Shown here piece by piece: positions 36,001 through 39,000 of a stretch of DNA of 64,000 bases; position 1 is the first letter of the stretch; each line of letters begins with the position of its first letter. A program made the position numbers. The DNA is taken from NCBI RefSeq assembly GCF_017348835.2, contig NZ_CP071375.1. The stretch is one strand, 5' to 3'. This stretch comes from Escherichia coli. Its GTDB lineage: Bacteria; Pseudomonadota; Gammaproteobacteria; Enterobacterales; Enterobacteriaceae.

Positions 36001-39000
36001 GCATCTGAATCGATCACGGTTTGGCCAAACCGTGATCGAATAGAGAGGAATACGCACGTAATGATTAAATGCTTTTGTTACACCATTCTTCCGGCATGAA
36101 TATTTATCCAGTTCCCTTTTTTATTTGTGTAGTGATACTGTCGGAATAGCGTTCAGTAATGTGAAGTGTCCTGTTAAAAATCTTTAATAAATGTGTCACC
36201 CTGGTCAGGAAATATCTGCTGAGATATTATTAGTTGGTGGGTAAGCGTACAGCCTGAACCGTCTGGTCAGAATCTGACGAATTAGACAAAGTGGTGTCCA
36301 CCAAATAAGTAGTGGGAACCAAAGTATCAGATATGCAGAAAAATGTGACTCCCGGCAGGCGAAAAGGCTGCCCTAATTATCCTCCCGAATTTAAACAGCA
36401 GCTCGTTGCTGCCTCCTGTGAACCCGGGATATCCATCTCAAAACTTGCTCTTGAAAATGGCATTAACGCCAATCTGTTGTTCAAATGGCGACAACAATGG
36501 CGCGAGGGAAAGCTGCTATTACCTTCTTCAGAGAGCCCCCAGCTACTTCCTGTGACTCTCGATGCAGCTGCCGAACAGCCAGAATCGCTCGCAGAGGACC
36601 CGGAAACCCTCAGTATCAGCTGTGAGGTAACGTTCCGGCACGGGACGCTCCGCTTCAATGGCAATGTCAGCGAAAAGCTCCTGACTCTGCTGATACAGGA
36701 ACTGAAGCGATGATCCCGTTACCTTCCGGGACCAAAATTTGGCTGGTTGCCGGTATCACCGATATGAGAAATGGCTTCAACGGCCTGGCTGCGAAAGTAC
36801 AAACGGCGCTGAAAGACGATCCCATGTCCGGCCATGTTTTCATTTTCCGGGGCCGCAGCGGCAGTCAGGTTAAACTGCTGTGGTCCACCGGTGACGGACT
36901 GTGCCTCCTGACCAAACGGCTGGAGCGTGGGCGCTTCGCCTGGCCGTCAGCCCGTGATGGCAAAGTGTTCCTTACGCAGGCGCAGCTGGCGATGCTGCTG
37001 GAAGGTATCGACTGGCGACAGCCTAAGCGGCTGCTGACCTCCCTGACCATGCTGTAAATCTCTTTATCCTGGTTGTCACAGAATAAGCCCGGTAAAATAC
37101 GGGCTTATGAACGACATCTCTTCTGACGACATCTTCCTGCTGAAACAGCGCCTGGCCGAACAGGAAGCGCTGATCCACGCCCTGCAGGAAAAGCTGAGCA
37201 ACCGGGAGCGCGAAATAGACCATCTGCAGGCGCAGCTGGATAAACTCCGCCGGATGAACTTCGGCAGTCGTTCCGAAAAAGTCTCCCGCCGTATCGCACA
37301 AATGGAAGCCGATCTGAACCGGCTTCAGAAAGAGAGCGATACGCTGACTGGTAGGGTGTATGACCCGGCAGTACAGCGTCCGTTGCGTCAGACCCGCACC
37401 CGTAAGCCGTTCCCTGAATCACTACCCCGTGACGAAAAGCGACTGTTGCCTGCGGCGCCGTGCTGCCCGAACTGCGGCGGTTCACTGAGCTATCTGGGCG
37501 AGGATACCGCCGAACAGCTGGAGTTGATGCGTAGCGCCTTCCGGGTTATCCGGACGGTACGGGAAAAACATGCCTGTACTCAGTGCGATGCCATCGTGCA
37601 GGCACCTGCACCTTCGCGGCCCATCGAGCGGGGTATCGCCGGACCGGGGCTGCTGGCCCGCGTGCTGACCTCGAAGTATGCAGAGCACACCCCGCTGTAT
37701 CGCCAGTCAGAAATATACGGCCGGCAAGGTGTGGAGCTGAGGCGTTCACTGCTGTCGGGCTGGGTGGATGCATGCTGCCGGCTGCTGTCTCCGCTGGAAG
37801 AGGCGCTTCATGGCTATGTCATGACTGACGGCAAACTCCATGCCGATGATACCCCGGTCCAGGTACTGCTGCCGGGTAATAAGAAGACGAAGACCGGGCG
37901 GTTGTGGGCGTATGTTCGTGATGACCGCAATGCAGGGTCAGCGTTGGCACCTGCAGTGTGGTTCGCTTACAGCCCGGACAGAAAAGGCATCCATCCGCAG
38001 ACTCATCTTGCCTGCTTCAGCGGTGTGCTGCAAGCGGATGCGTACGCCGGGTTCAACGAGCTGTATCGCAATGGTGGGATAACGGAAGCTGCCTGCTGGG
38101 CTCATGCCCGCCGAAAGATCCACGATGTGCACGTCCGCATCCCGTCAGCACTGACGGAAGAAGCCCTGGAGCAGATCGGTCAGTTGTACGCCATAGAGGC
38201 GGATATAAGGGGAATGCCGGCAGAGCAGCGGCTTGCTGAACGTCAGCGAAAAACGAAACCGCTGTTGAAATCCCTGGAAAGCTGGTTGCGTGAAAAGATG
38301 AAGACCCTGTCGCGACACTCAGAGTTGGCGAAGGCGTTCGCGTACGCACTTAACCAGTGGCCGGCACTGACGTACTATGCGAACGATGGCTGGGTGGAAA
38401 TCGACAACAACATCGCTGAAAATGCCCTGCGGGCGGTCAGTCTGGGTCGTAAAAACTTCCTGTTCTTCGGCTCTGACCATGGTGGTGAGCGGGGAGCGCT
38501 ACTGTACAGCCTGATCGGGATGTGCAAACTGAATGACGTGGATCCAGAAAGCTACCTTCGCCATGTGCTTGGTGAACCGCCCCGGAAATCCTGGAGACTA
38601 AACTCCCTGAGAAAGAGGTAAACAGGATGACTAAAAATACTCGTTTTTCCCCCGAAGTCCGTCAGCGGGCGATTCGTATGGTTCTGGAAAGTCAGGATGA
38701 ATATGACTCACAATGGGCGACAATTTGTTCCATTGCTCCAAAGATTGGCTGTACGCCGGAGACTCTGCGTGTCTGGGTTCGCCAGCATGAGCGGGATACC
38801 GGGAGTGGTGATGGTGGACTCACCACCGCTGAACGTCAGCGTCTGAAAGAGCTGGAACGTGAAAATCGTGAACTGCGCCGCAGTAACGATATCCTTCGCC
38901 AGGCTTCCGCTTATTTTGCGAAGGCGGAGTTCGACCGCCTCTGGAAAAAATAATGCCACTGCTGGATAAGCTGCGTGAGCAGTACGGGGTCGGACCGGTA

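Follow-up and report, generated by a model that had tools for sequence, protein, structure and literature searches.

The -1 frameshift signal of an IS629-type element nested in ISEc8 of Escherichia coli: a U_UU.U motif with an ALIL pseudoknot as the probable slip site, in place of an A6 run

Programmed -1 frameshifting leads to a fusion product in IS911, IS150 and dnaX, where the ribosome slips on a canonical A_AAA_AAG heptamer that has a structure on its 3' side and, often, a Shine-Dalgarno-like stimulator upstream. In IS3 the shift occurs on a tetramer by single-tRNA slippage in the A site, within an overlap of orfA and orfB and ahead of a downstream pseudoknot (PMC4066793); the tetramer is A_AA.G and the pseudoknot is of the H type. 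Two of the tetramers most prone to shifting, U_UU.U and U_UU.C, also serve IS3-family elements (PMC4066793). The insertion sequences IS3411 and IS1203, which are isoforms of IS629 (PMC3271280), carry a signal of a further kind, catalogued in Rfam as RF01497 ("ALIL"). Its layout comprises a slip motif, a 5-nucleotide spacer, a 17-nucleotide stem-loop 1, a gap of 45 nucleotides and a stem-loop 2 with a complementary internal loop. Stimulation of -1 frameshifting by the ALIL pseudoknot in IS3411 was reportedly described by Mazauric et al. in 2008. Stem 1 of IS3411 is placed like the stem-loop of BYDV, which is cited as lying 6 nucleotides 3' of the shift site, and the stem-loop 2 partner in ALIL signals is found 44-104 nucleotides downstream of stem-loop 1 (both PMC5009743).

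The element considered here lies in a 64,000-nucleotide stretch of E. coli DNA (contig NZ_CP071375.1, assembly GCF_017348835.2), called "the window" below. Its frameshift signal has the same layout as that of IS3411, IS629 and IS1203 and shows no substantive difference from it; the frameshift window is identical to that of IS1203 except for the stop codon, TAA here and TGA in IS1203. With IS3 it has in common a tetramer, downstream pseudoknot and overlapping reading frames, but the tetramer is U_UU.U, read by tRNA-Phe, and the pseudoknot joins an apical loop to an internal loop. A first-pass annotation of this DNA had placed the programmed slip at a run of six A residues beside the orfA stop codon. 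The reference data for the IS629 type, namely the Rfam ALIL element defined on IS3411 and the RefSeq fusion, put the frameshift elsewhere.

The element is 1310 bp long (38573..39882, plus strand, as are all oriented features given below) and sits in the 3' end of tnpC of ISEc8. Its limits follow from the terminal inverted repeats and a TGG duplication. The left repeat, TGAACCGCCCCGGAAATCCTGGAGA (38573..38597), matches the reverse complement of the right end (39858..39882) at 22 of 25 bases; the two are thus imperfect 25-bp repeats with three mismatches, beginning TGAACC and giving the element TG...CA ends. The 3-bp target-site duplication TGG flanks it at 38570..38572 and 39883..39885, and in silico removal of the element with one TGG restores the 512-amino-acid reading frame of ISEc8 TnpC. 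It shares about 96% identity with E. coli and Shigella copies that bear the name IS1203 or IS629, its overall divergence from IS1203 being about 4%; elements of this type occur in many copies across related genomes, and a locus in E. coli PE164 is 100% identical to that of the element. By its length, inverted repeats, target duplication, ORF layout, protein profile and sequence identity, it belongs to the IS629/IS1203/IS3411 type of the IS3 family, and it looks intact, with full ORFs, inverted repeats and target duplication. The RefSeq label for the transposase at this locus is only "IS3 family transposase". The host island of the nested copy is a pathogenic E. coli island that adjoins a tRNA-Phe gene.

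Two overlapping frames make up the coding region. In the 0 frame, orfA (38627..38953) encodes 108 amino acids with an HTH_Tnp_1 domain and ends in the codons TGG AAA AAA TAA at 38942-38953, the stop being 38951-38953. In the -1 frame, orfB (38953..39840) encodes 295 amino acids with HTH_21 and rve integrase-core (DDE) domains from an ATG at 38953-38955 that has one A in common with the orfA stop (TAATG). The first-pass annotation had described this arrangement correctly: orfB is shifted by -1 with respect to orfA, and the overlap contains an A6 run that ends at the OrfA stop with the OrfB ATG adjoining. The upstream stop in the orfB frame is a TAA at 38884-38886, which leaves that frame open from 38887 onwards; a -1 shift anywhere in 38887-38953 could therefore give a fusion, and the A6 run is not the sole place for one.

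Within this interval the sequence agrees closely with the Rfam signal. RF01497 matches 38908-39024 over its full length (model 1-117 of 117) and scores 120.3 bits where the gathering score is 50 (E = 4e-32). The model alignment places stem-loop 1, GGCGG AGUUCGA CCGCC, at 38923..38939, where it also appears in the centroid fold of the sequence and is 97.8% paired across relatives. Stem-loop 2 follows after a gap of 45 nucleotides (38985..39024), in a position seen both in the model alignment and among relatives, and this segment folded alone gives -21.2 kcal/mol (z = -2.6). Its internal loop, UCGGAC (38990-38995), can form six pairs, one of them G-U, with the apical loop GUUCGA (38929-38934). 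Across relatives, which were collected with the Rfam model so that pair counts are somewhat biased towards that structure, 94.3% of cells in the ALIL pairing are paired, compared with 29-42% when partners are slid; compensatory changes occur at eight ALIL pairs. The pseudoknot helix is 99.7% paired in the relatives, with double changes at two pairs, and in the window element this helix has itself undergone a double change, from C-G to U-A. In model score, register with the slip motif and loop-loop pairing, 38908-39024 is an ALIL frameshift stimulator, the stimulation itself being a prediction. The first-pass annotation had proposed a search for a downstream stimulatory structure, and the ALIL pseudoknot answers to that description; it is, however, placed for the U_UUU motif, with stem 1 lying 5' of the A6 run.

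The motif in question is a U_UU.U tetramer at 38914..38917, in the 0-frame codons UAU UUU (then GCG), separated from stem 1 by the 5-nucleotide spacer GCGAA (38918..38922) of the Rfam model alignment and lying 30 bases upstream of the A6 run. Duplication of one U of the 38914-38917 run yields a translation that agrees in full with WP_409049521.1, which RefSeq gives for the identical E. coli locus as a "programmed frameshift" transposase, with its CDS in two pieces; the PE164 annotation at that locus likewise carries an ALIL feature and the two-piece "programmed frameshift" CDS. The corresponding OrfAB coding region here is join(38627..38917, 38917..39840), spanning 38627..39840 and encoding 404 amino acids with the Pfam domains HTH_Tnp_1, HTH_21 and rve. 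This fusion scores 366.9 bits over the full NF033516 model (IS3 family transposase; cutoff 160), 5 bits above a fusion made at the A6 run. The frameshift feature is in this sense already known: Rfam lists it and RefSeq applies it. RefSeq junctions are set by homology rules, without experiment on this copy. Among the 120 fused transposases nearest to this one, 115 have such a junction at the U run, with the pattern AYF[C/G]...[I/M]MPLLDK, and none has the A6 junction, which would read ...WKK[I/M]MPLL. The A6 fusion protein was likewise not found in a collection of 15 billion proteins.

The alternation between AYFC and AYFG in these proteins might be read as DNA variation at the slip site. That reading was rejected: the same DNA gives Cys if U38917 is duplicated and Gly if G38918 is duplicated, and the difference among database proteins is one of annotation convention.

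The distribution of the parts among more distant relatives bears on the same point. Of 80 loci taken from diverse Proteobacteria and from other phyla, 74 carry ALIL, and 67 loci, with OrfB 53-67% identical, could be aligned without indels to give 68 alignment windows with the element itself. In all 68, T_TT[T/C] stands in the orfA frame 5 nucleotides before stem 1, and the -1 frame is open across the U_UUY motif. Column 7 of the alignment (38914) is a wobble, and therefore synonymous, position, yet U is the only base there in 65 distinct sequences, whereas adjacent wobble columns have entropies of 1.0-1.7 bits. The A6 run behaves differently. The 67 distant relatives have at most one to three consecutive A residues in its place, and a run of at least four A is present, among the 68, only in the window element. 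Enterobacterial relatives of 76-82% identity keep the A6 run and the stop. Variability in linker columns 33-43 lacks codon periodicity in either frame and does not separate the U-run site from the A6 site, and a Shine-Dalgarno-like stimulator conserved in the 68 was found neither upstream of the slip site nor before the A6 site.

A mechanism consistent with these features would run as follows. Most ribosomes translating orfA would stop at the TAA at 38951-38953 and release OrfA. In a minority, the tRNA-Phe on UUU 38915-38917 would slip back by one base and re-pair with UUU 38914-38916, and these slipped ribosomes would read on in the orfB frame to yield the 404-amino-acid OrfAB transposase. 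The slip would be stimulated by the ALIL structure, in which stem-loop 1, positioned 5 nucleotides after the motif, has its apical loop paired to the internal loop of stem-loop 2. Given the layout of the sequence, its match to Rfam, the curated fusion and the conservation and covariation across the family, OrfAB is in all likelihood made by an ALIL-stimulated -1 slip at U_UU.U 38914-38917; that this copy frameshifts, and at what rate, we infer from them. The position of the slip site in this copy is drawn from reviews, the Rfam model and RefSeq, with IS3411, known through secondary sources, as the experimental basis.

The A6 run (38945..38950) encodes the Lys-Lys of the OrfA C-terminus and, in the orfB frame, Glu-Lys-Ile. 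In favour of its being the main -1 slip site, through tRNA-Lys, it is a real run within the overlap, adjoins the stop and is kept with it in enterobacterial relatives; A-rich motifs dominate the shift sites of the IS3 family, and the tetramer A_AA.A is measurably active with a strong stimulator (PMC4066793). The run contains only this weak A_AA.A tetramer, however, and its 0-frame reading is G_AAA_AAA followed by UAA, which is not an X_XXZ_ZZN heptamer; compared with the A_AAA_AAG of IS911, IS150 and dnaX it is out of register, without a conserved or significant stimulator and not conserved. The hairpin that starts 4 nucleotides 3' of it (38954-38981, -8.6 kcal/mol) is weak and not significant, with z = -0.73 and an equal or better fold in 45 of 200 shuffles. 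The run lies 3' of stem 1 and 35 nucleotides before the beginning of stem-loop 2, so that the conserved stimulator would be unable to act on it. The relatives described above retain ALIL and U_UUY with no A run longer than three, and the corresponding fusion appears in no database searched. Nor are such runs scarce in this DNA: the two strands of the window hold 174 occurrences of AAAAAA, compared with 117 +/- 14 expected from shuffles, and by our estimate one is met by chance in about 1-in-10 cases in a given 67-nucleotide stretch of one strand, which is not statistically remarkable. Efficient transcriptional slippage by RNA polymerase needs runs longer than A6. A main site at A6 is accordingly very improbable. 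The slip had been assigned to it in the first-pass annotation, and the Rfam and IS3411 reference data, together with the RefSeq fusion, move it to U_UUU. The A6 run itself very probably just supplies the Lys-Lys with which OrfA ends and a stretch of the linker in OrfAB, and is not a conserved slip site.

A composite arrangement would leave U_UUU/ALIL as the main site and make A6-UAA a weak "second chance", with tRNA-Lys in the P site and the stop codon in the A site, specific to the enterobacterial IS629 lineage. The orfB frame is open through both sites, and the conservation of A6 and stop is confined to just this sub-clade. Homopolymeric runs beside stop codons reportedly slip more (the "shifty stops" of Weiss et al. 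1987), which would count in favour of such a site. Dual coding (Lys-Lys in OrfA, Glu-Lys-Ile in OrfAB) accounts just as well for the same conservation, a conserved or significant stimulator is lacking after the run, and the A6 junction is in no database protein. We regard this two-site arrangement as unlikely, and give as little credence to its evolutionary form, in which the back-up site was gained in the enterobacterial IS629 lineage downstream of the ancestral U_UUU/ALIL site. If two sites did operate, there would be two OrfAB isoforms with different 11-residue linkers and a second control point for the level of transposase. A further alternative dispenses with the frameshifted fusion and has OrfB made solely by termination-reinitiation at TAATG, starting at the ATG of orfB (38953). 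The ATG does overlap the OrfA stop, and in 52 of the 68 relatives an ATG, GTG or TTG stands in the -1 frame at or close to the orfA stop, chiefly in NTGA overlaps, so that coupled, independent synthesis of OrfB is plausible as an additional product. Such a start codon is missing there in the remaining 16 and in the E. coli relative L084, all of which nevertheless keep an intact orfB frame, U_UUY and ALIL. OrfB alone would be without the N-terminal DNA-binding HTH_Tnp_1 domain, and the conserved frameshift stimulator would be purposeless. In addition, high excision of IS629 is driven by a supply of fused OrfAB and not by the separate ORFs (Kusumoto 2011, as reviewed in bioRxiv 10.1101/2023.06.07.543989). 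The probability that OrfB arises in this way alone is close to negligible.

The significance of a U_UUU/ALIL slip site in this element is small beyond correct annotation. It does show that frameshift sites of the IS3 family are not callable from the nearest A run; the signal here is a 4-base U_UUU with a long-range pseudoknot. The proposal of the first-pass annotation that OrfAB is formed by a -1 shift, in an element that may be competent for transposition although nested in another insertion sequence, holds in its general idea, with all parts intact, and fails only in its choice of the A6 run as slip site. The IS629 copy in ISEc8 possesses all the parts for transposase expression and should therefore be treated as potentially mobile; judged from its sequence, it is plausibly mobile still. 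That potential mobility bears on IS629-driven rearrangements in the islands of pathogenic E. coli.

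The fused transposase OrfAB of the IS629-type insertion sequence at 38573-39882 is most likely produced, judging from sequence, by -1 frameshifting on a U_UU.U tetramer at 38914-38917 that is served by an ALIL (apical loop-internal loop) pseudoknot, and not on the A6 run at 38945-38950. The first-pass annotation had proposed programmed -1 slippage on the A6 run; the frameshift itself stands, but the conserved, curated site lies about 30 nt upstream. Its description of the overlap was accurate and is confirmed by coordinates: OrfA (38627-38953, 108 aa) ends in TGG AAA AAA TAA, OrfB (295 aa, -1 frame) extends from an ATG at 38953-38955 to 39840, the A of that ATG is common to the OrfA stop codon, and bases 38939-38956 read CTC TGG AAA AAA TAA TGC. 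Because the OrfB frame is open from 38887, a shift is possible in principle anywhere in 38887-38953. A6 runs are common in the window (174 matches, both strands), and in the OrfA frame this one reads G_AAA_AAA, which departs from the canonical X_XXZ_ZZN heptamer.

An Rfam scan returned a single match, a full-model hit to RF01497 (ALIL pseudoknot) at 38908-39024 (120.3 bits; gathering score, 50; E = 4e-32). The feature is already known as this Rfam family and is used in RefSeq annotation, where the identical locus of E. coli strain PE164 carries an ALIL feature and a two-piece "programmed frameshift" CDS. It was reportedly described by Mazauric et al. in 2008. Mapping of the Rfam model onto the window places the slippery tetramer in the 0-frame codons UAU UUU GCG, followed by a 5-nt spacer, GCGAA (38918-38922), stem-loop 1, GGCGG AGUUCGA CCGCC (38923-38939), a 45-nt gap that includes the A6 run (38940-38984), and stem-loop 2 with the internal loop UCGGAC (38985-39024); GUUCGA (38929-38934) pairs with UCGGAC (38990-38995) to make the pseudoknot. 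Both stem-loops are present in the centroid structure from thermodynamic folding. The IS3411 structure, as described in review (PMC5009743) with stem 1 placed like a BYDV stem-loop cited at 6 nt 3' of its shift site, assigns the slip to U_UUU rather than to the A6 run, which lies 5 nt beyond stem 1 and 35 nt ahead of stem-loop 2. U_UU.U and U_UU.C rank with the tetramers most prone to shifting, and they are the prevailing tetramers in IS3-family elements (PMC4066793). Folding of the sequence after the A6 run gives a weak hairpin starting 4 nt 3' of it (-8.6 kcal/mol), not better than shuffled sequence (z = -0.73). Neither site is preceded by a conserved Shine-Dalgarno-like element.

Distant relatives were gathered by alignment of diverse OrfB homologues, giving 80 loci (OrfB 53-67% identical) on one-genome-per-species contigs from Alpha-, Beta- and Gammaproteobacteria, Acidobacteria, Chloroflexi and other groups. 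A full-length ALIL match occurs in 74 of the 80, and the 67 without indels relative to the model, together with the window element, form a comparative set of 68 windows. T_TT[T/C] occupies model positions 7-10 in the orfA frame, 5 nt ahead of stem 1, in 68/68 (30 TTTT, 38 TTTC), and (G/A/T)_TTT_TT[C/T] hexamers or heptamers are found in 26. In every one of the 68, the -1 frame runs through the motif without a stop, the nearest upstream stop being at model position -8, and the orfA stop falls at position 44 or 41. At column 7, where a wobble change in the Tyr or Phe codon would be synonymous, all 65 distinct sequences have U, while nearby wobble columns (1, 4, 13) have entropies of 1.5-1.7 bits; column 10 is U or C only. 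As read from this alignment, such conservation of U_UUY bears the mark of selection acting on the slippery tetramer itself. Standard pairs fill 94.3% of cells, versus 29-42% with 3' partners slid by 1-3 columns, in counts biased towards the ALIL structure by the use of the Rfam model itself to gather the sequences; compensatory double changes occur at eight pairs, and 0/500 shuffles reached any one of the observed values. In the pseudoknot helix, formed by columns 22-27 and 83-88, pairing reaches 99.7%, and the window element bears a double change there, C23-G87 to U-A (38930 and 38994).

Both hypothetical fusions were built and looked up as exact sequences in the protein collection: the U-run fusion equals WP_409049521.1, which RefSeq gives for the identical locus, and the A6 fusion had no exact match there. 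The junction AYF[C/G]...[I/M]MPLLDK is found in 115 of the 120 nearest proteins and WKK[I/M]MPLL in none of them. The choice between C and G comes from annotation practice, since either U38917 or G38918 of the same DNA is duplicated, and I/M reflects TAA versus TGA stops. The U-run fusion matches the full NCBIfam model NF033516 (IS3 family transposase) and carries the Pfam domains HTH_Tnp_1, HTH_21 and rve; its NF033516 score is 5 bits above that of the A6 fusion (366.9 vs 361.9), a difference of little weight, as annotated fusions went into building the profile. Some E. coli IS629-type transposases reach 430-436 aa through internal tandem duplications (P0002, P0003, P0006, P0013, P0038), such as a repeated 26 aa segment in the OrfA part or another repeat within the catalytic part.

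The A6 run and ensuing stop codon are kept in enterobacterial relatives of 76-82% identity (K. pneumoniae locus L083, E. coli plasmid locus L084), as expected of dual coding (Lys-Lys in OrfA, Glu-Lys-Ile in OrfAB). It is very improbable as the main slip site, given its place between the two stem-loops, a junction without database match, and a longest A run from stem 1 to the orfB start that is 6 in the window element only and 1-3 in 67/67 relatives; entropy at the A6 columns is 0.5-1.5 bits. Slightly better placed, if still a slim prospect, is main slippage on U_UUU with a low-level second slip at A6-UAA, where P-site tRNA-Lys would slip with the stop codon in the A site, but nothing requires it. 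That OrfB is made solely from its own ATG is scarcely credible: 16/68 relatives and L084 have no start codon of any kind there, yet orfB, U_UUY and ALIL are kept, and IS629 excision is driven by fused OrfAB (bioRxiv 10.1101/2023.06.07.543989). In L084 (NZ_CP123262.1), 82% identical and aligned to window 38860-39040, U_UUU, stem 1 and the A6 run are all preserved and the stop is TAG, with GCG replacing ATG at the orfB start, so that its catalytic domain is reachable by frameshifting only; the match in this plasmid is confined to the element's first ~500 bp.

The suggestion that the element may still transpose agrees with its state, the 1310-bp copy being intact and plausibly competent. Its ends are 25-bp terminal inverted repeats (TGAACCGCCCCGG..., 3 mismatches), flanked by TGG direct repeats at 38570-38572 and 39883-39885. 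The insertion, with a clean TGG duplication, breaks tnpC of ISEc8 (IS66 family; tnpA, tnpB and tnpC; 36312-38572 and 39886-39958) 31 codons from its end, and deletion in silico of the element and one TGG regains the 512-aa TnpC. The PE164 locus is 100% identical to the element, and annotated copies of IS1203 and IS629 are ~96% identical; IS1203 and IS3411 are IS629 isoforms (PMC3271280). IS629-type sequences are present in 4395 of 5426 complete E. coli genomes (median 5 places per genome having any, maximum 56); the exact window variant with its junctions, at 100% identity, occurs in PE164 only among the matches listed. Beyond lie a P4-type tyrosine integrase gene (40075-41340, minus strand), the directly adjoining tRNA-Phe (GAA) gene (41538-41613, minus strand) and, after it, chromosomal genes whose PE164 annotations are dicD and dsbD, and the IS cluster therefore stands at the margin of a genomic island associated with tRNA-Phe.

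In 44/68 relatives the orfA stop overlaps the orfB-frame start as NTGA (35 ATGA, 6 GTGA, 3 TTGA; columns 43-46 of the 68-window alignment, window 38950-38953). This arrangement suggests that translational coupling could give free OrfB in many members of the family, besides the frameshifted fusion.
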